Translations under genes and position numbers: made by a program
Shown here: positions 21,236-64,000 of the stretch, piece after piece
How positions within the stretch are numbered: the first letter of the stretch is position 1
Layout of the letters: each line of letters begins with the position of its first letter
The notes under the pieces: model-generated
The model's database searches: none
Told to the model about the DNA's origin: nothing
What the model saw: only the letters and a program-made list of their open reading frames with translations
Sequence record: NC_010583.1
DNA length: 64,000 bases
Direction: 5' to 3' (one strand)
Source of the DNA: Escherichia phage Eps7

Positions 21236-21282
21236 AATATTATAGCAAATCTGGTAGCGATTAGCAAGTAAAATTATAAACT
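21236..21282 (-). promoter_or_regulatory. T5-type early promoter cassette (upstream of nrdB)
   Basis: RC: -35 CTTGCT, -10 TATAAT. Confidence 0.45.
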
Positions 21283-21756
21283 ATCAAGCTCCAATAGTTT
21301 AGCATCGCGCCATTCTATAGCATCCTCTAATTCTTTAAATGTTTTAGTATGTTTTACACCTTTCCTAGCTATTTGGACTTGATAAGATCCACTTGCTTTT
21401 TGGTGTATATTTTTAATACCTAACTTATTGTCCTTATGTGCTCCAACGTTCTTTCCATTACTAAATCTGTTAGAGGCTAGTAAATTAATTGCTCTATTAT
21501 CATGACGTATTCTATTATCATGATCTACTTCTTTTGGGATGTACCCATGCGTAATATAGAATGCTAGGATATGTGCGTAGTATTTTGTACCTCTTACCTG
21601 CATTACTATGTATCCTGAGCATTTTTCCAAAGAGCCTGCCTCTTTGCCTGCAAACTTAGTATTAAATGATTTATCTTCTCTAGGTTTGTGGGTAAAGATT
21701 CCGGTTTCTGGATTATAGTCAAATAACTCAGCTATTTCTTTGTATTTTTCTTCCAT
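21274..21756 (-). CDS. HNH homing endonuclease
   Basis: HNH motif VDHDNRIRHDNRAINLL...N; free-standing gene inserted between nrdA and nrdB. Confidence 0.7.
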   Translation of the reverse strand: MEEKYKEIAELFDYNPETGIFTHKPREDKSFNTKFAGKEAGSLEKCSGYIVMQVRGTKYYAHILAFYITHGYIPKEVDHDNRIRHDNRAINLLASNRFSNGKNVGAHKDNKLGIKNIHQKASGSYQVQIARKGVKHTKTFKELEDAIEWRDAKLLELDSL

Positions 21757-21811: not shown

Positions 21812-24204
21812 TTATAATTGACAACCACCAGATGCGCATCCAGCAGCAGCTTCCTCTCCTGCACCTCCACCATTTTCAGTGTTGAAGTTTGCATAATAAA
21901 AGGTTTTCCAACCGTACTTAACAGCAGTCATAAAGTCACGAACTACTACTGGGCCGGGAATGATTTCATTCTCGAACTTGGTGTAGTCATAGTACATATT
22001 CGTACTGATAGACTGGCTGAAGAATTTCTGCATGGTTGCTACCCATTTGATCCACTCGATACGATCTACATCATAAGCCAGTTTATAGCTCATTAATGTA
22101 TCCCAATCAGTTGCACCTGGAGCAATTGCAATTACTTTATTAACTGCACTACCCTTGATAGATACGATCTTACGGGGCGGTTCGATAGAGTTAGTAACAC
22201 CTAGCAGTACAGAGGAACTTTCACCTGGCATCTGAGCAGTCAGAACAGAGTTGCGCATACCATATTTCAGAATATCTGCACGCAGAGATTCCCAATCCAT
22301 TTCTAGACCTACAGTTACCAGTTCATCAACAGTTTTCTTGTACGTGTCGATTACCAGAGTTCCTTGCGAAGGCTTAGTACGATTAAACCAGTCACATGCA
22401 CCTTGTTCTTTAGCCAGACGTACAGAGGCTTTATGTAGGAAGTAGGACAGCTTTTCAGCTTCACGGTGAATCCAGTTACGTGCTTCAACACCTTCGTAAG
22501 CCAAACCTTCTGCTGCCATTGCACCTGCTGCGTTCATCAGACCAATACCAACGTTACGACGTTTCTTAGCCGTGTACTTCCATAGTTGGGAATGGGTAAT
22601 CCTGAATCTCGATGATTGTATCAACGAATTTCAGAAGGATGTAGCAAGTTTTCTCCCATTCAGCCAGAGATTCCATGCGGCCTAGTACAACACCACCTAA
22701 GTTACACAGAGATACTTCACCAATATCTTCTGGACGCATATCGTCTAACTGATCTTGGGTTTTATACAGTTCCGTAACGTGATGGAATGGACGGGTGGCT
22801 GAGTAATTCAACACAAAAGGGTTGGTCATACGAATCGGGTCAAGGAAGTTACCATGACGGTTAGATTCACCAATGTGATGAGCATACATACGCCCTGTTT
22901 CCATACGGATACGTAACCAAGTATCTAGGATTTCTTTTGCAGAGATTCTAGGAGCTGCTGGAATTGTTTTTCCTTCGTGGTCGATCTTTGTAAGAGAAGC
23001 CACACGTTTCTCCGCTGCCACGTAGATTTCTTCAAACTTAGCCTCATCTTCACCATAAAACGCTTCATGAACTTCTGGTGCGTAGAAGTAGGACATTAGC
23101 GTAATATCTTCGTTTTTCAGGTAACGTTTTAACAGAAGGTTGTTAAAGCTCAGAGAATAATCCATCTTATCGATTTTATTCTCGTCTGTAGCACGTTGCT
23201 GCTTAACCTGCATCAACTGAATGATTTCAGGATCGAAGTATGGATAAGACACAGTAGCAGAACCGCCACGGGTTTGCTGAGTGTTAGCTTTTACTGATCG
23301 GTCAATGTGTCGATAATATGGCAGTTTTCCGGAATGCGGGAATGCCCCATTTCGCACCGGATCAGCAATTGATCGGCTTTCAAGATGATACCCGATTCCC
23401 GCTCTGGCTGCGACCATTTTGAAGACGATGTGCTCGGCTGTGTCGATTGAATCCAGCGTGTCAGTGGAATCCACGAGACAGCAACTAGCAAATCCACGGT
23501 CACTAGAGCGCAGGCCAACCAGTGGCGGCGTAGGAACGTTGATTTTGTGGAGCGACATTGCATTGTAGAGGTCGATTGCATCTAGGATTGTCCAGTTAGG
23601 TTGAGATAACATCGCCATTGCCATACCCATGTAGGCAAACTGCGGGGTTTCATAAATTTCACCAGTTGCAATATTACGACGAGAATACTTGTCGAAGAAC
23701 TGTTTCAGTCCACCACTGGTGAATAAACGATCGCGATCATGATCAATAACTTGGTTCAGAGCGTCAAACTGATCATCGCTAATCCATGCACTCATGTCTT
23801 CCCAGCGCCAACACGAACCATATGATCGTGGAAGAAACGCAGAGAAGGGGTTCAAAGGAATCATATAGGCGTTTACGCATCTGCGCAAGACGTAATTCCT
23901 TTGCTACAGTATCATATGCTGGGTTGTCTTTGATAAGACCTTCAGCGGCTTTAATTAACACATCTTGGAGGGTATCGGAATCTACAACACCTTTTGGTAG
24001 ATTTTTCTGGGCAGACATAACGACGGCAGACCAACTTACGTCAGTTGCTTTACATGCCCATGCAGCCCAATCATTGAGTTTTTCAGGAGCAAAGTCCTGA
24101 ACAGTACCGTCACGTTTAATTACTTTTTCAATACTATGGCTCATTGGGGTTTCCTTTTTGTAGTTATCAGGATTTAGGAAATATTCTACTTTGTTTTGGG
24201 TCAT
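21812..24204 (-). CDS. nrdA: ribonucleotide reductase class Ia alpha subunit (three apparent frameshifts)
   Basis: ATP-cone N-terminus, catalytic core ...VIDHDRD..., ...RRNVGIGLMNAAG..., C-terminal CxxxGGC tail; fragments join at G4 tract 23847-23850 (restores FEPP), at 23799-23800 and near 22575-22581. Confidence 0.75.
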
Positions 24205-24511: not shown

Positions 24512-24811
24512 TTACACCTTCCCCATATCCTTAAAGATATCGTAGAATGCTTTAGACTCCGGTGAGCGAACGTTGTCGATCAGTTCGATCATAGAGAAAG
24601 GAGAGTTTTCGTACTTCTCATAGACTTCCATAAGAAGTGCTAGACCTGAATCACCCTTGATGTCTTTCTGAGCTATATCCCCACAGATAATTAAACGACA
24701 ATCTTGTCCTACACGAGTCAGGAGACAGATCATTGCTTCAACGGAGATATTCTGAGCTTCATCGACAATTACATAGGAGTTGTTGAATGTTGCCACGCTT
24801 TCTTGAACCAT
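24512..24811 (-). CDS. PhoH-like ATPase C-terminal-domain protein (short form)
   Basis: Walker B-like YVIVDEAQN and ...IICGDIAQKDIKG...SGL; Walker A absent; start may lie at 24845 if the T6 tract at 24823-24828 is an overcall. Confidence 0.45.
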   Translation of the reverse strand: MVQESVATFNNSYVIVDEAQNISVEAMICLLTRVGQDCRLIICGDIAQKDIKGDSGLALLMEVYEKYENSPFSMIELIDNVRSPESKAFYDIFKDMGKV

Positions 24812-52018: not shown

Positions 52019-52100
52019 CTTATTTAGTAAGGAGTTGTTTTACTAATTCCTTTATTTTATTAATCTTTTTTTTTTTGAAAGGGTGCAAAACGAACCTCTT

Positions 52101-52128
52101 GCATTTTGCATTTTGCATTTTGCGTTTT
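52101..52128. repeat. tandem heptamer repeat (GCATTTT) x4 in convergent intergenic region
   Basis: gcattttgcattttgcattttgcgtttt; preceded by a T11 run at 52066-52076. Confidence 0.6.
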
Positions 52129-52264: not shown

Positions 52265-55215
52265 TTATGGTAGTTCTGTAATTGTTGGAGCATTTCCGTT
52301 AAGCATTGATTTTACAAGGTTTTTCAGTTCATATAACTCATTGCGTAATACGTTAATTTCCTCCTGTTGATTATCAATCTTTGCTTTTTGCTCTTTGAAT
52401 GCGTTAACAAGAAGTGCGACAACACCATTATAGTTAATGCCTTTGATTGCCTCGCCTTTTGGGTCTAGCTGACCATCGTTATTCAAAGAATGAACCGCTT
52501 CCGGCAAAACCCTTTCAACATCTTGTGCGATCAATCCAGCCTCAATACTATAAACGCTGTTTTCATCTTCAATTAGATTGTTGCGCTTGTAGTAAGTATA
52601 ACCAGTTAGATAATCAATTTTGTCGGATGCCGTTTCGATCTCTTTTAGATGTGCTTTTAATCTAATGTCAGACCTGCTAACCCAATTTGATGCGCTACCA
52701 TTTCCAGCACTATCAAAAATAAAGTCAGCGCCCTTAACATAAAGATGTGTTTCAGCGCCGCCAGAAGTCCACGGAACAACATCCATGCCAGCTATCCAAT
52801 CTTTCCCCAATAAACAGATTTAAATATGGCAACCGCAGAATCAAATCCAATGTGCTCAACAAGCAATCCAGACGCACGACTACGCCAGTCGGCAAATGAA
52901 CCACCCTCAACTTGACCAGCAATAAGAGCGTTTGGATCACCGCGCCTAACTCCATTTACATACATACCCCTTGCGTTATCATCAACATAAGATGATATGA
53001 CCCTGTAAGTGTTTATTCCTGATGGAGTCCATGCAAATATTCTCGCTGAATCAGCAAACGCGCTTATGTGACCATCACGATCCCATTTAAGACCTGAATC
53101 ATGATCCCCAATTGCTATAGAGTAATCACCAAGAGCCGATTGAGCATCCGGACTTAATAACATCAATTGCCTATCAGATCTTGCTATCCTGTACCATCCA
53201 CCCCAAGAGCCAGCACTGCAAATGATACCCCATTTATTACCGTTCATTGCGGTTGCAACAATATTTCCATACTCAACATGACCGTTTGCATTTTTACCGT
53301 GAACATGCAATTCATACATCCACCAACCAGAGGCTTCAGGTGGTTGATATGTAACAAGTTCTCCGCTTGAGTAATAACCGCTTTCTGCGTATGTTGACAT
53401 AAACCCAAGAATGTTTGAATTATTAGGAATAATAATTGCTTGACCACCAACAGGAGTATTTAAGTTCTTTCTTGCTCCAACTTCAGTATTAGATCCAGTG
53501 CCGCCAGCATCAATTGAAAGAGGAATCCATCTTCCAGTTTCATCAGTCCAAACACCCCACGCCGCATCAGGTCTAATTGTGATTCGATAAGGTGAGTTAC
53601 TCCCTGGTGCATACATCATAGTTTCTGTTTCTGTTTGCTTTAAACGATCAATGCCAAAGTTTATTTTTGCGCCCTCAACGTTTTCAGCACCAGTACCGCC
53701 AGCACCAATAGAAAGCGCAGATGTGCTGTTATTGTCATTACGCGCAACGCGCCATTCCCCATTGTTAGCGATCCGTAATTCATAAGTCCATGCAGGATTA
53801 CGAAAAGAATTATAAGCGCCAGCATATTGATCTTTTACAGAATTAACAGCCTCAACTTTTAGCGCCTCCCTTGCAAGGTCTTTGTTTGCAAGATCATTAA
53901 GGTTCTGATCCTTCTTTAACGACGCTTGCATAACCTGTTCTGCTGATGCAGCCGCTGTCTCCGCTCTATCTGCTGCACTGGTGGCATTAGTAGCTTTCTC
54001 TCCTGCTATTGTAGCGCTACCAGCGGCCTCCAGGGCCTTGTCTGTTGCTGTCGTTGCAGCAGTAGTGGCGGTATTTTTAAATACCTCTGCTTCGTCTCTG
54101 TAGCCTTTGGTTGTGGTCATCGCTTGCGTAGCTGTATTCGCACTACCTGATGCACTTTGCTGAGCTAGCTTAGCAGCGTCTTCACTAGCTTTTGAGTTAA
54201 TTTCACTAGTCTTTGTATTAGTTTCTGAGTTTTTTGCTGCTAATGCTGATGTGGAGGCTTGTGCAGCGAATGCTTCTGCTTCATCCCTGAATCCTTTGGA
54301 GTCAGAAGCAGAGGCAGCGGAATCAGCAGCATTAGTCTCACTAGTTTTTGCTGCTGCTGCATATGCTGCTGCATTAGTCTCACTAGTTTTTGCATTAGTC
54401 TCACTAGTTTTTGCATTAATCTCACTAGTTTTTGCTGCAGCTGATGATTCTATAGCAGTAGTTTCACTAATTTTTGCTGCAGCTGATGATTCTGCAGCTT
54501 TAGTAGCGGATGCAGCAGATTGAGAAGCAGAAATAGCAGACTGAGAAGCAGAAGCTTCAGAAGCTTCAGCAGAAATAGCAGATTCATTCTCAGAATTCTT
54601 AGCATTAAGTTCTGAAGTCTTAGCAGCTATCTCGGAGTCTTTTGCAGTAGTAGCGTATTCTCCCGCCTCTGTAGCAGAACCAGCAGCAGCAATAGCCTGA
54701 TTGGTAGACTCAGTAGCAGATGTAGCAGCATTTTGCTCAGAAGTAGCAGCAGCAGTCTTAGCAGCCTCAGCGTCCTTCTTAGCTTGTTCAGCTAATAGAC
54801 GACTCTGTTCAGCATTTTGTGCAGCAAGTTCAGCAGAATCACGGAATCCTTTGGATTCCTCAGCTGACGTAGCAGAGGCATCAGCACTATCTTTAGATAA
54901 ACCAGCTTGTCTCTCCGCTTCAGTAGCAGAAGCAGCAGATTGAGTTGCAGAAGTTTCTGAAGAGTTAGCGTAAATTGCAGCTAGGTTCTCCGAGTCCTTA
55001 GCATTTGTTTCAGATTCTTTTGCTGCAATTTCAGAATCTTTTGCTGCCGCAGCAGAAGCAGCAGAGGCCTCAACAGCCCCTGTTAGTTCACTAGCAGTAA
55101 TAGAACTAATAGAAGTACCTAAAACTACCGTATACTTAGGATATTTACTAGCAGTAGTTGTAGTGTCATCTATGTTCAGAATCTGCTGTACAATAATTTT
55201 AGTTTTAAGTGCCAT
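52265..55215 (-). CDS. ltf: L-shaped tail fibre protein with C-terminal intramolecular chaperone (peptidase S74-like) domain; frameshift at C4 tract 52805-52808
   Basis: N-terminal repetitive AK.SE.NAK.SE fibre shaft, central beta-rich region, C-terminal chaperone motifs (SDIRLKAHLKEI...DYLTGYTYYKRN...SIEAGLIAQDVERVLPEAV); two ORFs join across the tract. Confidence 0.7.
54371..54500. repeat. in-frame tandem DNA repeats inside tail-fibre gene
   Basis: 21-nt unit gcattagtctcactagttttt x3 (54371-54433), then tgctgcagctgatgattct x2; encodes repeated TSETNAK-type peptide units. Confidence 0.7.
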
Positions 55216-55637
55216 TATTGAGTTACTCCATCGCTGATGTATACTTTACCTTCCATAATACGGAAAGAATTGACTTCAGAGCCAATTACATCACGAGTCA
55301 TTAGGATATCATAATAACCAGCAAAACGTTGTCTTGGGTTATACTTATCACGTTCTTTAGATGCTTTTTCACCAATATTAGTAGTGTCTGCAATGGAAAG
55401 ACTAATTGCAGCAGCACCTTGAGCAGCATCAATAACATGAGTTTTAAAATTAGCTAGAACCTCGGCGTTCTCATCTAAACTAGATTTAATAGTTCCTCTG
55501 AGTGAATACCCTGTCAAGTTAACAGGAAATTCTGTTGGCGGATATACGCTATCATCAACATCCATAAATTGCATGATAAGACTATAAGGCACTTTCTCAT
55601 CAACAACAATATCAATAACTCGGTTTTCTGTACTCAT
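55215..55637 (-). CDS. tail collar protein (T5 p132-like, 140 aa)
   Basis: Size and position (between pb4-like and tail-fibre genes) match T5 p132; beta-rich sequence. Confidence 0.5.
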
Positions 55638-55642
55638 TATAA

Positions 55643-57701
55643 TTACCTTATATGGATATACCCACTATTTAGGTCTATCTTCATCTTGTAGTATGCTTCA
55701 GGGTTTCCTGATAACGCAGCATTTCTATCGTAGATTATATTAACACCTATTTGTGATAAGAAGGCATTTCCTGCCACAATCTTATCAGCAGTTACAGTTC
55801 CATTAACAATCATGTTGCCATGAAGAACCATTGCAGGGTTAATCCATCCAGCCCCGTTCCATTGACGGGTAAATGCTGTTTGTGGAGCATTACTGTTAAA
55901 TTGTGTTAGAACATCGTATTTAACCGGAGGTTTTCCAAAGTTATTTTGAAAGAATGCGTTAGCTTGTCCATCATCCCAACCGCCTAATCCAGGAATACCC
56001 ATGGAGTACATCCCAGGACCACGCTGTCCATCATGTCCTATAGTACCTTCAGTACCACTCCATTGAACTACATCAGACCAGCTAGTACCTTCAAGAAGTT
56101 TGTTAGTAACTGGATCAAGTGTACCTGTAGTCGCATAGATATTTTGTGTCATATCTGTACGATTAGGTGGAGTTTTTGACCAACCAGGAGGTGGATAATC
56201 TTGTTCTAACGGTTTGGCCGGTAAAGATGTTGCTAACTTATAAACAAATACTGTTTGCTTACCTTGTAAACCAGTTCCAATATCTACGTCACCATTTGGT
56301 GTTCCAATTACTACACCACTAGAAATACGCAGAGTAGTACCATCATAACGTATCCATTGTGTAGCATTACCAATGTCTAACTTAGCTTTGGCAGAGGTAT
56401 TATCCATACCCATCCAAATACCAGAGTTATTATCTCCCCAAGATTTACCTTGAGTATAAATTGCTGGATTATCTTTACCAGATAAGTTAGTCATGATAAA
56501 GTTCGCAGCATTAATATCTCTAGTAATTACTTTACCATCGACGTTAACAACACGATTTATAGGGTCGAAAGAAATAGGTGCTTTTCCTTCTTCATCTAGC
56601 AGACCAATGTTAATAGCACCAGTAGCTGCATCAATTAAGAATGTCTGTCTCCAGATTTCTCCATCTTTCATACTACCCTTAATAAAGGCATAGTTAACAT
56701 CAATACCAGTCTCATTGACAAAACTATTATCTAGAGGAGTATCTTCATTCAATATAAATGTTACAGGAGCTGATTCTGTTATATCTTGCTTATTTGGTCC
56801 CCAGGCAATTGATGAAACCTTAAAGGTATGTTCAACTTTCCATGGGAATGATATAATCGTTGCAGCTCTAGCAGCACCCACGTTTATCTTTTGAGCTTTA
56901 GCCCATCCGGTTTTAGCGTATTCCTCGGAGTTTATATAAGTAACCAAGAACTCACGAACGTTAGCACCAGCACCACGTTCCCATTCCCACTCAATTCTAA
57001 CATCATATCGTTCTTTACCATCAGCAATTCGTGCAGCTTTAAAAACAATATCGATAGGTGCAGTAGGTGGAACAAAGTTATAAGCTACAGTTAGAATATT
57101 AGGAAACTCGTAGTATCCTGAAGAATCAACTGTAACACCATCAGGCATAGTTACTTGACCAGATATTCTGATCTTATAGTCTCCGATAGGAACTCCACCA
57201 AATTTAATAGTAGAACCTAAAGCCCCAATATAATATTTAGTCCAAGGACTGTCTTCAGTGGCTGTACTTTTTAACTCAATAGTACAGTAACTTGCTTCAC
57301 CAGTTGTTTCCACAACAACTATCGGTGCGCCCACCCCAACATCCACAGGTTCTGACTCAGATCTTGCTGCGACAATTATTGGCTTCTCTTTTGTTTTAAA
57401 GTTAGTTTCATTAGAGAGGTTAATACCAATTTTTGCATTTAAAAGTTCTGAGTCAATAATCGAGTCATAAAAAAGCTCCCTGAACCTGATAGGTAGTTGA
57501 GGGAGTTAAATTATTGATCATAACAAAGAAAGTGTCGATTCCAGTGAAATCTCTTCTATCCACTTCTTCGCCAAGTTTAAGCCAGAATGATCTACCGATA
57601 ACATCGTAGTCGGTATAGATAGAATGCTGGATATACGCCATCGTATACCCAGTCATAATACTATTTAAGACCATCTTGGCTGGTGCATTATTCGAAATCA
57701 T
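55643..57701 (-). CDS. pb4: baseplate/central fibre protein pb4-like (frameshifted at A6 tract 57469-57474)
   Basis: Combined length about 685 aa (T5 pb4 is about 688); 78-aa and 567-aa ORFs join when the T6 run on the coding strand is read as T5. Confidence 0.65.
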
Positions 57702-60551
57702 TTAAATAGATGCCCAATCCACAGATTGCTCGCCATTATCACCTTCTGCTCTTATACGGAAGCGTAACTTCCTATTAATACCCAGAGCATCCTCATTATG
57801 AAGAGCATAGTCTGCCTTATTGTATATCAGTAGATAATCGTAGACATACTGATCTTCAATTCGTACACTTCTTAATAAACGATCTAGGTTATCGTAGATT
57901 TCGAGAGTGTAGAAGATTCCATCAATGATATCTTCTTCTGGAATTCTATCCCAGGCCAATTTAACGTCTGGTCCTACAAACTCCGAAGCATCTCCTGAAG
58001 CTGTATTAGTAACCCTGAAGTTACTAACGACGCTTAAGTTTTTAGCAGAGTTAAGTTCTACTGATAATGTTACAGGAGAACTTCGTCTACCATTAATATC
58101 TACAGCTCTAATCTCAAAGACTGCTAAACCAGCAGGTTCTCCAATAATTTCTTGGATCATTCGTAGATTTGGATTAGTTTCTAGTTGCTGTACGATATAA
58201 GGATCAGCATGTCCAGAATGAACGATGGAGTAATAAACAACGTTATTAGTTAAGCTAGGAAGCCAAGATAGCTCACCATTCTTACCAATAGACCCTACTT
58301 GTCCACCTGGTGTTGGTGTATACATAAAGTCTCTAGGAGGCAGTACGTTATTACTAACATCAGGGATATCGTTACCACTATTATCAACCTGCTCGGAGTT
58401 AATGAATACATCCTCACCATACTCTTGCAGTGTAATATTAATCTTACCTTCTCTAGAGTTTTCAACTTCATCAACTAGGAAGTATTTCTTATCCCAACCA
58501 TAACGACCATATGTAAAAGCAACCGGATCGTTAGGCTCAATACCTATGAAATGATATGGTAATGAGAATGTGAGAGTTCGTGAGTAACGAGATTTTTTCA
58601 GTTCTCTATCTGCAAAGCTACGTGCAGTATAATAGTTAGTGATGTTTGCAAAAGAAAGCTGAAGTTTTTTATCTAATCCTTTATCTTGTTCTTTAAATAT
58701 AGAGTTAAAGAATGTAATGGAGTTAGTTTTCCAGCTTAATGCGGGATCTAGTATAGAGGCCTGTACTGAGTTGAATTTATTTCTGCCAGTAGTATCTGAC
58801 AATTCCAGATCACCATAGGTATCTAAGAAGTCAATCTCCAGTGGAGTATTCGAGAACTTCTCAACAGTTATTCTATACTGACCAGATAAGTTGTTGATAG
58901 CACCCCCATAAGACTCTATTAATCCCTGCACGTTTTTAAATACTGACTCAGAGGTATCGAGAATAGTGTTCATTTGAACTATTTGTCTATTCTCTCCTAC
59001 AGCATCAGTCCATCCAACGTATCTCCAGTAGGGTTGCCAAGAAACCTGATAGGATTCATCAATTATATCCAGAATAGCTGCTTCTTGAATAAGTTGCTGG
59101 AGAGGGAACTGATCAATAGTGATATTAGCACCATAGCGATCAGAGGTTAGGTAGTCCAGAGTTTGCCAGATACCATTTAAGCTAGTCTTATCAGCAGTTA
59201 CTCTACCATCTGAATGATAGATCTTAATCTTCTTACCTTGAACTTCAGCGCTAACTTCTGGAATTTCTGTTCTGTTTTCATTAATAGTAAAGCGAACAAT
59301 AGCGTAAGCAGTATCTAACAGTTTATAACGAGAGTCCCAGTATTCTGGTCCATTCTCATTCATGTTCTGTAGGTAGAAACCTTTCTCTTTTGCAATGTTA
59401 ACTAGAACATCCGCAGCAGATTGGTCTGCTTTACCATGATAAGTCCAGATACGTATATCGCCATTACCATCGTTATACCTATATTCCTGTCCATGAACAG
59501 AGGGTTCAGAGCTTGATTGACCAGAAGCAATACGTTGCATGGTATCTCCAGCTACTTTCTTAGTACCAAAGCAAGTACGAGACTTACTATCGTTAGGATC
59601 AATACAGATCATTGGTACATCACCAAAGTAGAAATCTAGAAATCCATCAATCTCACCCTCACAGAAGGCATATACTATATATACGATATTAGGGTTATGC
59701 AGCTCAGTATCCGCAAATACGGGGATTCCAGGGATTTTCTGAGTTCCATACACTACTGGAAGGAACTTAGCCGCTAAGTTAAAATCGATGTCAACTTCCT
59801 TAGTCACAGTCTCATAGTATTTCTTTAGGCTATAGCTTCTAGAAAGACCAAATAACTTTTTCTTAGACTGTAACTTGTAACGTTCTTCCTGAACCTGATA
59901 CTTAGCGAGAATAGAAATACTTTTATTAGCATGGAAGAATCCGTAGTCCTCTTGATACTCAGGTCGCTTAGCACCATTAGATGGAACTAATTGGCCAGCA
60001 ACAATCTCAAGTCCCCTATGGTCAGCATCGTCTGTGAAACGTCCGTTTACTCTATCAAAGTCGTAAAACTGGTTCGAACAGTTCCATGTGATAGTGGATG
60101 TGCTAATTCCAGAAGTACCAATGTTATCCTTAATACCACCACCAGTGATTTTACCACGGAAGTAAAGTAAAGGACCATTAGTGTCTGGATCCACAGGAAG
60201 AATGTTACCTTCTTCATCAATAACCGCTTGATGGATTGAGATGGATCTATCTAGGAATGATACACCATTTTGGACTAGTTTTAATACTTCATCCTCAGCA
60301 GTACCTGTGATAGTAAAAGAAAGACTACCAATGGAAAGATCTCTATTTTGTTTATGTGTTGTTATAGACTTAACCTTACCGGATGTATAAAGAATCCCAT
60401 TATATCTTACATCTCTAAAATAATCTGTAAGATATATGTAGGCAGAACTTGATCCAGTAGAGCTTGGCAATTCAAGAGTAATAAGGCATGCAGTTTTTAT
60501 TTTATTATTAGTTCTTAAATACTCTCTTGCACTGTCAAGAATTTTCTTCAT
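57702..60551 (-). CDS. pb3: baseplate hub protein pb3-like (949 aa)
   Basis: Length identical to T5 pb3 (949 aa); between distal tail protein and pb4 homologs. Confidence 0.75.
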   Translation of the reverse strand: MKKILDSAREYLRTNNKIKTACLITLELPSSTGSSSAYIYLTDYFRDVRYNGILYTSGKVKSITTHKQNRDLSIGSLSFTITGTAEDEVLKLVQNGVSFLDRSISIHQAVIDEEGNILPVDPDTNGPLLYFRGKITGGGIKDNIGTSGISTSTITWNCSNQFYDFDRVNGRFTDDADHRGLEIVAGQLVPSNGAKRPEYQEDYGFFHANKSISILAKYQVQEERYKLQSKKKLFGLSRSYSLKKYYETVTKEVDIDFNLAAKFLPVVYGTQKIPGIPVFADTELHNPNIVYIVYAFCEGEIDGFLDFYFGDVPMICIDPNDSKSRTCFGTKKVAGDTMQRIASGQSSSEPSVHGQEYRYNDGNGDIRIWTYHGKADQSAADVLVNIAKEKGFYLQNMNENGPEYWDSRYKLLDTAYAIVRFTINENRTEIPEVSAEVQGKKIKIYHSDGRVTADKTSLNGIWQTLDYLTSDRYGANITIDQFPLQQLIQEAAILDIIDESYQVSWQPYWRYVGWTDAVGENRQIVQMNTILDTSESVFKNVQGLIESYGGAINNLSGQYRITVEKFSNTPLEIDFLDTYGDLELSDTTGRNKFNSVQASILDPALSWKTNSITFFNSIFKEQDKGLDKKLQLSFANITNYYTARSFADRELKKSRYSRTLTFSLPYHFIGIEPNDPVAFTYGRYGWDKKYFLVDEVENSREGKINITLQEYGEDVFINSEQVDNSGNDIPDVSNNVLPPRDFMYTPTPGGQVGSIGKNGELSWLPSLTNNVVYYSIVHSGHADPYIVQQLETNPNLRMIQEIIGEPAGLAVFEIRAVDINGRRSSPVTLSVELNSAKNLSVVSNFRVTNTASGDASEFVGPDVKLAWDRIPEEDIIDGIFYTLEIYDNLDRLLRSVRIEDQYVYDYLLIYNKADYALHNEDALGINRKLRFRIRAEGDNGEQSVDWASI

Positions 60552-61162
60552 AGACTTTCCCTCAAGGAAAGTGAAATACCAGTATATGTACCATTGCTAT
60601 TTAACGTAGAGCCGAAGCTGTCTCCATTCATTAATTTAGTTCTAAATAGAATACCATTAAATACCGGTTTCTCACTACCCGTAGTAGTAATGAATAGATC
60701 AGGATAAACACTTATATTCCAAGTATTTCCTGCTGTGTTGATAGAAGTGATTTTATACACTTTTGGATGATTGGACAACTTAAATAAATCTCCTGGTTTA
60801 GGCAGTCCACGAAGTGTACCTTTAGTGTCCATAATAACTGTTGAACCTTTTTGTCCAGCAGGAATATTTACAGCACTAGTATCACCACGAACTCGGAAAG
60901 CCTCATATTGTGGTAATAACACATCAATATAGCTACCTGTTCTTTTATAATCTAGGATGAATGAGTCTAATTTAGCAAATTCATCTGGGAATAATTCTGG
61001 ATAAGAGATATTAATACCCCAATATTGAGCAGACACCTTAACCTCCCTAACTTTACCATTAGGTAATTCATCACGAATCATAGGGTCATTGTCTACTAAG
61101 TTAACGCTTTCAAAACCTAACCCTGATAGCTCTGGGTTCGTGTATGGGTCTGGTAGTCTCAT
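60548..61162 (-). CDS. pb9: distal tail protein (Dit, T5 pb9-like, 204 aa)
   Basis: Size and position immediately downstream of the tape-measure gene. Confidence 0.7.
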   Translation of the reverse strand: MRLPDPYTNPELSGLGFESVNLVDNDPMIRDELPNGKVREVKVSAQYWGINISYPELFPDEFAKLDSFILDYKRTGSYIDVLLPQYEAFRVRGDTSAVNIPAGQKGSTVIMDTKGTLRGLPKPGDLFKLSNHPKVYKITSINTAGNTWNISVYPDLFITTTGSEKPVFNGILFRTKLMNGDSFGSTLNSNGTYTGISLSLRESL

Positions 61163-61184
61163 AGTTAATTTCTCCTCTTAATAA

Positions 61185-61220
61185 CAATATTATAATAGGA
61201 TTGGAAAATTTTATCAAGAA
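61185..61220 (-). promoter_or_regulatory. sigma70-like promoter upstream of pb9-like gene
   Basis: RC: UP element AAAAATAAAAATTT, -35 TTGATA, 18-nt spacer, -10 TATAAT, RBS AGGAG. Confidence 0.45.
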
Positions 61221-61229
61221 ATTTTTATT

Positions 61230-61263
61230 TTTCCATAAAGAAAGGAGGACATAAAGTCCTCCT
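61230..61263 (-). terminator. intrinsic terminator after tape-measure gene
   Basis: Hairpin ggaggac-ataaa-gtcctcc followed on the minus strand by a U-rich run. Confidence 0.5.
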
Positions 61264-61269
61264 CCAGTA

Positions 61270-64000
61270 TTAAGAATTACCAAGTGATTTCAGGGTGGTT
61301 CCATTCTCATTAAGAGCCTGTTCCACGGCATCCCTGAAAGCAGCACTGTTACTCGAAGCAAAGTCTCGGAAGCTAGCCGCATCCATCGTACTGATGTTCA
61401 GCACAATAGGCCTACCCGATGTACCCTTTGAAGATCCTTTGAGTTCATCAGTAGGAGTAGCCTTCATCGGAACCATAGGAGTGATTACTTCGGTACCATG
61501 CTCACCCATCTGGTAACTAACTCCAGGGTACATATTACCACCTTCTGCACGAGGTACGAAAGAGTTCGCATTACCAATCCCTTGATCTCCTCGAATATAA
61601 GAAAGTTCTCCTGCGTTAGCCGACATAGAAACGTCTACGTTCTTCTGGCGCTCTCCAAGAGACAAGTATTGAGCTGTCTCAGTACCCGAGTCTCCAATAG
61701 AAGACATACCAGATGCAGAGGATGCTTGTGCAAGAGACAATGCACCTGCAACACCTGCTGCAATCATAAGAGGGATAGACCACGGGTAAGGAACAGCTGT
61801 TGCTGCTTGCATCACCGCTACTGCCGTCTGAATTATGATCTGCTTCTTAGCTGCGTCTTGCTGGATCTTAACCTTTTCCGCTTCCAGTTTCTTGAGCTTA
61901 GCTTTAGATGCTTCGGATTTACCGTCACGTTTTTGCTCTGCTGCAATAGCCTGGTCAATAGCTGATACTTGATTACTTACTCCCATAGCAATCATTGAAG
62001 AAACCATCTGCATACCTGCCGCCACAGTGCTAACAGTATCTAAAGATCCCTGAGAGAACTGCATCATGGCATTAGTAAGATTTCCCATACTCTGGCCAAC
62101 TTCCGTTGCTTGGCTATTTAATGCTCCAAGTTTAGAAATAGCTTCGTCGTAAGAGGCCATCTGGTTCTGCATATCAGCATACTTCTTATCATCCCCAGAT
62201 AAACCAGTCGTAGGAGTATAAGTAGCTCCAACAGAAGAACCTACCTGTTGCTGCATCTGAGCATTACGTTGTGCTGTTAAAGCCGACATCTGAGCCCTTG
62301 TCTTGGCTATTTCAGCATTCCAGCGCATTTGCTCGTTAGCATTACCTTTGGTAAGTTCTTTCATCTTGGTATAAAAATCTAACTGCATTTCCATTTTTTT
62401 GCATTTCCCCTGCCAGAGGGAACATGGAAGTTAGAGTATTTTCAAAGGCTTCTTGCCTTTTACTGGTCATTTCAGCTTGCTGGTCTTGGCGGAATTTCCA
62501 GATTTCACGCCCTATCTGTGCTTGAGCACGTCTTGATTGTTCAGCTTCTTTCTGCTTATCAGCTTGTTTTGTATACCATTCGTACTTCTCTTTTTCAATA
62601 GTCAATTCAAGATTTAACTGTGCTAGACGATACTGAGTATCTGTCATAGTACGGTTATTTAAGAGAGCTATTTCACGATCAACACCAAGAATCTTATCCG
62701 TATAGTCCTTAACTTTCTTCTGAGCTTCCATGTCCTGGTTAGTAATTTTGATACGTTCTAACTGAACCTTAGCTATTTCATTCTCAATTGCCTTGTTACC
62801 TTTGTTAGTTTCTAGGACACGCTTAAGAGCTGCTTCCTGTTCTTCTAACTGTTGGATTTCTAGACGTCTACCCGCTTCCTGTGCTTTCTCTTTATCCTTG
62901 GTCTGGTTGTACACTTCGGCAATCTTTTGCTGAACTTCTAGCTGATTTTTAGTCTCATTACTAGTTAATTTTACATAACCAGCAAGAGCTTGTGAGGCAG
63001 TCTTCATCTCACTAAGAGTATTATACCCTAAGTTCAGACTCTTAACATACTCATCAGCATTTTTACCAGTGCCGGCAGATAGAGACTCAATAGTCTTAAT
63101 CGTATCCGATAGGGATGCACTAGTTTTAGCCGCAGTATTAGTATTTTCGGCAATGTTCTGGATATCGTTAGCTAAATCACTAGCAGTTTTCTTAGCCTGA
63201 TCATATGCTTTCTGCTGTTCCGTCAGTCCTTTCAGAGTTGCGGAGTTAAAGTCATAAACCGCATCAGGGTCATTCATATCCTTCTGCAGATTAATCTGCT
63301 TCTGAAATTCTGGATTAGTCTTAGCAGCCGCAGCACCAGCAGCTTGATACGCAGATTTCCAAGCATTAAGGTTTTCAGTAGAGTCATCAACTTCTTTACC
63401 TAACCTTGCTACCTGTAGTCCCATAGCTGCGGTTTCTTCTACAAACTTTTTGTTAGCTTCGGAAGAACCTATGCGCACTCCCCCTACTTCAAATCCCCCA
63501 GCAGCTAATCCAACAGGCATTCCCTCACCCACTAATCTAATAGCGGCAGCAGTACTAGCATCTGCTTGGGACATACGTTTATCAAACTCAGTCTTTAGTT
63601 TATTACGCTTATCCAGAGACTCTTTATACATATCAAGAGCTTTATTATATCCTTCCTCGGAAGCGGAAAGACTTAAAGCTACAGCACCAACGTTAGTTGG
63701 GTCAATCTGACGGTTAGTTTCTTCTTGTGCTCTAGCAGCAGAAGCCGAGATAGATGCTTGAGAAGTATAGAATACTGCGTTAATAGAATCAATTACCGGC
63801 CCTAAATACTTAGCAGCAGCCTGTTGAACCTTTCTTAGTGCAGCATCAGCGTTAGCAGCAAACTGTTCCCATGGAGTTGCACGGAGTACGTCATCCAAGT
63901 AGCCGAAACGTTTAGTAGATTCAGCAATTACTGCGTTAGCATATGCTTGTTGCTTTTGGAAAGTGGAAAGACTATTGACGTTATATGTGATACCTGTGTT
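61270..64000 (-). CDS. pb2: tail tape measure protein (T5 pb2-like), N-terminus beyond window; frameshift at T7 tract 62364-62370
   Basis: Ala/Gln-rich coiled-coil, frame open to window edge; ORFs 62342-63898 and 61270-62394 join if the A7 run is read as A6 (...AGEMQKMEMQLDF...). Confidence 0.75.

Follow-up and report, generated by a model that had tools for sequence, protein, structure and literature searches.

Programmed frameshifts are in fact used by phage tail genes, the tail-assembly chaperone being an example, and the +1 frameshift site of prfB, the gene of RF2, consists of an SD-like element, a 3-nt spacer and the sequence CUU UGA C. Homopolymers subject to phase variation are typically at least 7-8 nt long for high-frequency slippage, and a run of 6 nt is short for efficient transcriptional slippage. 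Regarding the protein concerned here, the closest described system is pb4 of phage T5, a trimer which extends the central fibre from pb3 and has the receptor-binding protein at its far end (PMC10038345). In T5 the contact with pb3 is made by the N terminus of pb4 together with the first FNIII domain (PMC10038345).

In this study we analysed a stretch of 64,000 nt, called the window below, of the genome record of Escherichia phage EPS7 (CP000917 / NC_010583, GenBank 2008), in which the pb4 gene is interrupted at a run of six T on its coding strand. A preliminary description of the window considered an error most likely, and at the same time kept programmed slippage and phase variation under consideration, tail genes being classic sites of both. 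Our analysis leads, with a probability of roughly 0.93, to the reading that the extra T is a base-calling/sequencing or assembly error in the EPS7 record, and that neither recoding, phase variation nor gene splitting is involved.

The interrupted pb4 gene and its product

On the minus strand, which is the coding strand of pb4, the site reads CAG GTT CAG GGA GCT TTT TTA TGA and the T6 run is present. Frame 0 proceeds from the ATG at 57701 to the TGA at 57465, so that it halts after 78 codons (78 aa), and the splitting of the gene by the T6/A6 tract, as the preliminary description had it, is thus confirmed. The +1 frame is open, without any stop, from 57505 down to 55643. The two stop-free frames share 41 nt (57465-57505), in agreement with the overlap of about 40 nt which had been given for the 78-aa and 567-aa ORFs; the ORFs themselves, when taken from start to stop, do not overlap but lie 118 nt apart, the first start in the +1 frame being the GTG at 57346, from which the 567-aa ORF begins. 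Only this truncated Pb4 of 567 aa is annotated in the EPS7 record. For the 78-aa fragment, an exact-match look-up, which is weak evidence, returned no exact match in the protein collection or in any indexed contig, and this fits an artefact unique to the EPS7 record. The coordinates of the features are collected in Table 1.

Table 1. Coordinates of the tracts, genes and ORFs in the window that bear on the interrupted tail genes
Feature	Position	Strand	Remarks
T6 run, coding strand (A6 on the plus strand)	57469-57474	-	one T more than in any relative; apparent frameshift
Whole pb4 (central straight fibre) gene	55643-57701	-	2059 nt here; 2058 nt (685 aa) in relatives
78-aa N-terminal pb4 fragment	57465-57701	-	made by the extra T; ends within Fn3-I_PB4, profile positions 1-68 of 88
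567-aa GTG-start ORF, 'Tail protein Pb4'	55643-57346	-	ACB97591.1 / YP_001837071.1 / UniProt B2I4I6; begins in Fn3-II, profile position 18 of 95
pb3 (baseplate hub, 949 aa)	57702-60551	-	directly upstream of pb4; its stop (TAA) adjoins the pb4 ATG
p132/LtfC collar protein (140 aa)	55215-55637	-	directly downstream of pb4; PF23926 LtfC
A7 run in the tape-measure (pb2) gene	62394-62400	-	splits the gene; frame change at about 62396-62409 (tblastn)
G4A3 tract in the side-fibre (LTF, pb1-like) gene (52268-55215)	52802-52808	-	consensus G5A3; 983-aa gene becomes 807 aa + 173/181-aa ORF
807-aa LTF ORF	52792-55215	-	ACB97589.1 / YP_001837069.1

When one T was deleted in silico, a single pb4 product of 685 aa was obtained. 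The expectation that this product would be close to T5 pb4 holds, for it aligns end to end with both solved chains: residues 1-685 with 1-685 of 8hre_A (8HRE, 685 aa) at 1460 bits, and with 1-688 of T5 pb4 (7ZLV, 688 aa) at 1221 bits, and both alignments run through the junction GAFYDS without a gap. All four PB4 Pfam domains are recovered over their full length, the E-values ranging from 2e-37 to 5e-199, namely PF24169 (Fn3-I) at 10-97, PF24170 (Fn3-II) at 103-196, PF24171 (Fn3-III) at 211-335 and PF24168 (PB4 spike) at 350-664. In addition, the gene order distal tail protein, pb3, pb4, p132/LtfC and LTF is the same as in annotated relatives. The pb4 of EPS7 would, as judged from its corrected sequence, be an ordinary T5-type central fibre, biologically of little consequence.

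The break itself falls inside folded domains and not at a boundary between them, the 78-aa piece ending within Fn3-I and the 567-aa piece starting within Fn3-II (Table 1). Since the break is placed in this way, and since the N-terminal part that is lost makes the pb3 contact in T5, the split is biologically implausible; a pb4 without its N-terminal part should not enter the virion.

The tract in relatives and the indel load of the record

A query of 121 nt, with the tract at its centre, matched 217 related phage records, and the T6 allele occurs in none of them (0/217); the best match reached 120/121 (99.2%), the difference being the single gap, and a match of 100% was not found. Seven relatives were aligned base by base (BSP22A, Seafire, PSa2, one IMG/VR contig and three contigs from Salmonella assemblies), all of which carry T5, with 91-nt flanks otherwise identical in six of the seven. 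Among the 40 matches listed, pb4 spans 2058 nt in all, against 2059 nt in EPS7, and 36 records reach an identity of 99% or more across the gene, with one intact CDS wherever it is annotated. At the protein level, the 90% cluster containing EPS7 Pb4 has 358 members, and those read are 685 aa or, with a later start, 665 aa long, the 567-aa protein of EPS7 excepted. The closest matches to the window in the phage collection are 97-98% identical. Exact-pattern scans gave no T6 match and one T5 match in IMG/VR, and neither T6 nor T5 in the JGI metagenomes, collections in which close relatives are too few for these counts to be informative.

Two of the matching records deserve a remark of their own. 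In phage INF11 (PV692321.1, 34587-34705) the tract region measures 119 nt instead of 120 and the product is annotated as 'hypothetical protein', so this could be another record with a pb4 indel. In Seafire (MK050846.2, 8001-10058) the pb4 protein has the accession QEQ55430.1 while its neighbours are numbered AZF880xx, and this break in the series suggests that the pb4 gene there was revised after deposit.

Regarding the record as a whole, the window was compared with PSa2 and NG_S8, modern genomes about 98% identical to the window and to each other, and its tail region with five more relatives; a non-3n indel was taken as unique to the record when it was contradicted by every covering relative (at least 2). 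By this definition, 19 unique non-3n indels were found in about 47 kb, 15 of which fall in conserved coding sequence as mapped onto the annotations of PSa2 and NG_S8. At the level of genes of at least 100 aa, tblastn detected 9 frame-broken ones out of 57 in the window: those of NrdA (with three breaks), DHFR, ligase subunit B, a 233-aa protein, a 117-aa protein, the tape measure, the LTF and pb4, together with a ninth in which the change is probably an insertion and not a frameshift. When PSa2 and NG_S8 were compared with each other by the same test as a control, 1 of 36 and 0 of 35 genes were frame-broken, and 4 isolated non-3n indels were seen in 32.6 kb. Moreover, the runs of the EPS7 record are biased in length, with +1 expansions against the relatives in 7 of the 22 comparable 6-nt runs and in both of the two 7-nt runs, while 5-nt runs agree in 125 of 138.

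As all these lesions together would be implausible in a viable phage, the simplest reading is that the deposit is technically error-prone. A homopolymer-length error would then have lengthened the T5 run of pb4 to T6 in the 2008 deposit, base-calling being the cause that we infer from the sequence comparison, and the real phage would most likely have GGA GCT TTT TAT GAC, encoding one central straight-fibre protein of 685 aa. The ranking of error above programmed slippage or phase variation, already given in the preliminary description, is upheld by the absence of T6 from 217 records, the many unique frameshifts and the +1 bias of runs of 6-7 nt. Its statement that the same signature recurs genome-wide is correct, but only 7 of the 19 unique indels are situated in runs of at least 4 nt. 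A purely homopolymer (pyrosequencing-type) signature is accordingly only partly true, the other 12 being single-base indels in ordinary sequence. In the literature searched, no statement on the quality or the re-sequencing of the EPS7 sequence was found; the phage EH7 of PMC11237722 is not EPS7 but a different phage.

The second tract to which attention had been drawn is an A7 run in the tape-measure gene. The position given for it, 62364-62370, was mistaken, as those coordinates read 'accaaga' and the A7 run lies 30 nt away (Table 1). The closest relative here, phage ende, shares 99.3% identity with the window over 59751-64000 and has A6 at this tract and an intact gene of 1236 aa. From this comparison the A7 of the tape measure appears to be the same kind of error as the T6 of pb4.

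Elsewhere in the window, the frame changes in nrdA (21815-24204, minus strand) are situated at about 23848, 23804 and 22578, and in the same gene four 1-nt indels that compensate one another are clustered at 22796-22819, none of them shared with any other record compared. In the PhoH-like gene about 400 nt of PSa2 and NG_S8 (about aa 22-162 of 253) are absent at 24788-24797, where the flanking alignments overlap by 10 nt; this gap reflects either a genuine loss at a microhomology or a collapse in the assembly. Between nrdB and nrdA there is a 160-aa ORF (21274-21756, minus strand) at a place where relatives have only about 35 nt. By eye, its translation resembles an HNH endonuclease that includes a DNA-binding region of the AP2 type; a single homing endonuclease has been reported for EPS7 (PMC3326045), and this ORF may be the one. 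The intergenic poly-T downstream of the LTF gene (52066-52105) has T11 here and T10, T12 and T15 in three relatives, so the spot looks genuinely hypervariable, and a 7-nt tandem duplication of TTGCATT adjoining it is unique to the window. Finally, the spacer upstream of the distal-tail-protein gene reads AAAGAAAGGAGG at 61241-61244 and AAAGAAAAGGAGG in 5 of 5 relatives, a 1-nt difference, unique to the record, beside the ribosome-binding site.

The side-fibre gene requires a different assessment. Its tract is G5A3 in all 54 matching phage records (54/54), and the G4A3 of EPS7 leaves downstream of the 807-aa ORF a 173/181-aa ORF which carries the Peptidase_S74 chaperone domain. The motif SDIRLK, presumably the S74 autocleavage site, follows the shift at a distance of about 47 aa. 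At this tract G5A2 is found in another phage (L005, 8344-8432; L012, 1790-1878), whose identity to the window is 97.7%. Two Salmonella sequencing runs, separate from each other, yielded this phage (SRR3182272 / GCA_008843455.1; SRR15251447 / GCA_019385035.1) as contigs that are 100% identical, and with either deletion, G4A3 or G5A2, the protein ends at 807 aa in ...YWGKIG*. At the indel density seen in the EPS7 record, a random error would, by our estimate, have a chance of well under 1% of falling in the same 8-nt tract. The G5A2 counterpart and the low chance of such a coincidence together suggest that the LTF frameshift of EPS7 may be a genuine, recurrent truncation, for which the tract may be a mutational hotspot or the truncation may be selected. 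T5 tolerates truncation of its side fibre, the fibreless T5-hd1 being an example (PMC10038345; PMC11313276). The proposition that every frameshift in the EPS7 record is an error was therefore rejected for the LTF gene, in view of its G5A2 counterpart. The case is not transferable to pb4, because the T6 allele has no counterpart anywhere. Thus the idea of real frameshift variation in tail genes, raised in the preliminary description, finds some support for the neighbouring LTF only and none for pb4.

Recoding, splitting and phase variation as alternatives

If the extra T were genuine in the EPS7 stock, full-length pb4, in an amount sufficient for its three copies per virion, might still be made by an unevolved, low-level +1 slippage involving tRNA-Phe, or by slippage of RNA polymerase on T6/A6. 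It is the +1 frame that holds the body of the gene, and rescue of the pb4 frame needs a shift of +1 (or -2). In this respect the site has suitable neighbours, for tRNA-Phe on UUU can re-pair perfectly one base downstream, which restores the GAFYDS junction of the relatives, the frame-0 UGA follows two codons on and the SD-like AGGGAG stands just upstream; besides, at least one further tail-gene frameshift, that of the LTF, would be real in this phage group. Nevertheless, this explanation is very unlikely, since T6 is carried by none of the 217 relatives, since the tape measure, nrdA (three times), DHFR and ligase B would also have to be broken in the same viable phage, and since the record-wide +1 bias of homopolymers indicates a technical cause.

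A related proposition, which we rate lower again, is that the extra T is real and that full-length pb4 is produced by an RF2-like +1 recoding at AGGGAG-C-U UUU UUA UGA, arisen de novo within an essential gene of the tail fibre. Were it true, a siphophage would be surviving on a few percent of the normal supply of its central fibre. The apparent context of AGGGAG is simply the conserved codons Q-G-A-F plus an artefactual stop, and no relative has this arrangement.

Still less credit can be given to the view that pb4 is truly split or decayed in EPS7 and that the annotated 567-aa GTG-start protein is functional. Both GenBank and RefSeq annotate exactly this protein, but it is devoid of Fn3-I and of the first 17 profile positions of Fn3-II, and it is through the pb4 N terminus and the first FNIII domain that pb3 attachment takes place in T5 (PMC10038345). 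What is more, its GTG lies well past the stop of the 78-aa fragment, and no SD-like sequence was seen, by eye, just upstream of it.

With respect to an evolved site, the extra T makes the heptamer U UUU UUA, which is in phase for classical -1 slippage. A -1 frameshift on it was tried and rejected, as the -1 frame hits a stop after 9 codons. No significant stimulatory RNA structure was found in the 99 nt downstream of the tract, where the minimum free energy is -11.6 against a shuffle mean of -8.85 kcal/mol (z = -1.05) and 32 of 200 shuffles fold as well. The two-frame arrangement was found in none of the homologues, a single in-frame CDS being annotated in the relatives, and no polymorphism of tract length was seen among close relatives, which have T5 throughout, both in the 217-record match and in the seven aligned. 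At 6 nt in EPS7 and 5 nt in the relatives, the tract is below the length of a contingency locus. Programmed frameshift and phase variation thus fail their defining test, because the site is neither conserved nor polymorphic. The least credible of all the readings is therefore a programmed frameshift or a phase-variable (contingency) tract evolved to regulate pb4 expression, for which the in-phase heptamer and the known use of programmed frameshifts by tail genes could be adduced, but which is contradicted by a gene uninterrupted in all relatives, an invariant tract length, a -1 product stopping after 9 codons next to an insignificant downstream fold and a short product that is only a partial domain; the suggestion of programmed slippage or phase variation at pb4 is consequently abandoned.

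Significance and comparison with known systems

The chief value of the reading preferred here, an error in the record, is one of curation, as it flags the reference Pb4, tape measure and NrdA of EPS7 as truncated artefacts. EPS7 gives its name to the genus Epseptimavirus, and the Pb4 of 567 aa in RefSeq and UniProt, the split tape measure and the fragmented NrdA can mislead comparative as well as structural work. More generally, when a tail gene shows a frameshift at a homopolymer, a comparison with close relatives and with the total indel load of the record should come first.

In comparison with the -1 heptamer of the HIV-1 type, the EPS7 site has the identical U UUU UUA in the correct phase; it differs in that the -1 frame comes to an early end and lacks a downstream structure, and the heptamer is owed solely to the extra T. 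With the +1 frameshift of RF2 (prfB) it shares the need for a +1 shift, a frame-0 UGA and an SD-like AGGGAG upstream. The spacing is different, as AGGGAG is separated from UUU by 2 nt and from UUA by 5 nt whereas the spacer of prfB has 3 nt, and the P-site codon by the stop, UUA, cannot re-pair at +1; moreover, the site is absent from all homologues and no autoregulatory logic is apparent. The likeness to the fibreless T5-hd1, a laboratory variant with a pb1 truncation, concerns the LTF tract of EPS7 and not pb4, and a fibreless phenotype is not known for EPS7. Homopolymer-length errors in early or low-coverage phage deposits resemble the present case in the unique expansion of a 5-nt run, in the many other unique indels and in the +1 bias of runs of at least 6 nt, and EPS7 differs from them in having 12 of its 19 unique indels outside runs of at least 4 nt. 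The closest likeness concerns T5 pb4 itself: as deposited, the EPS7 gene consists of a 78-aa fragment and an annotated 567-aa ORF, whereas once the extra T is removed no difference is left, the corrected product having the same four domains in the same order within the same T5-like succession of pb3, pb4, p132/LtfC and LTF.
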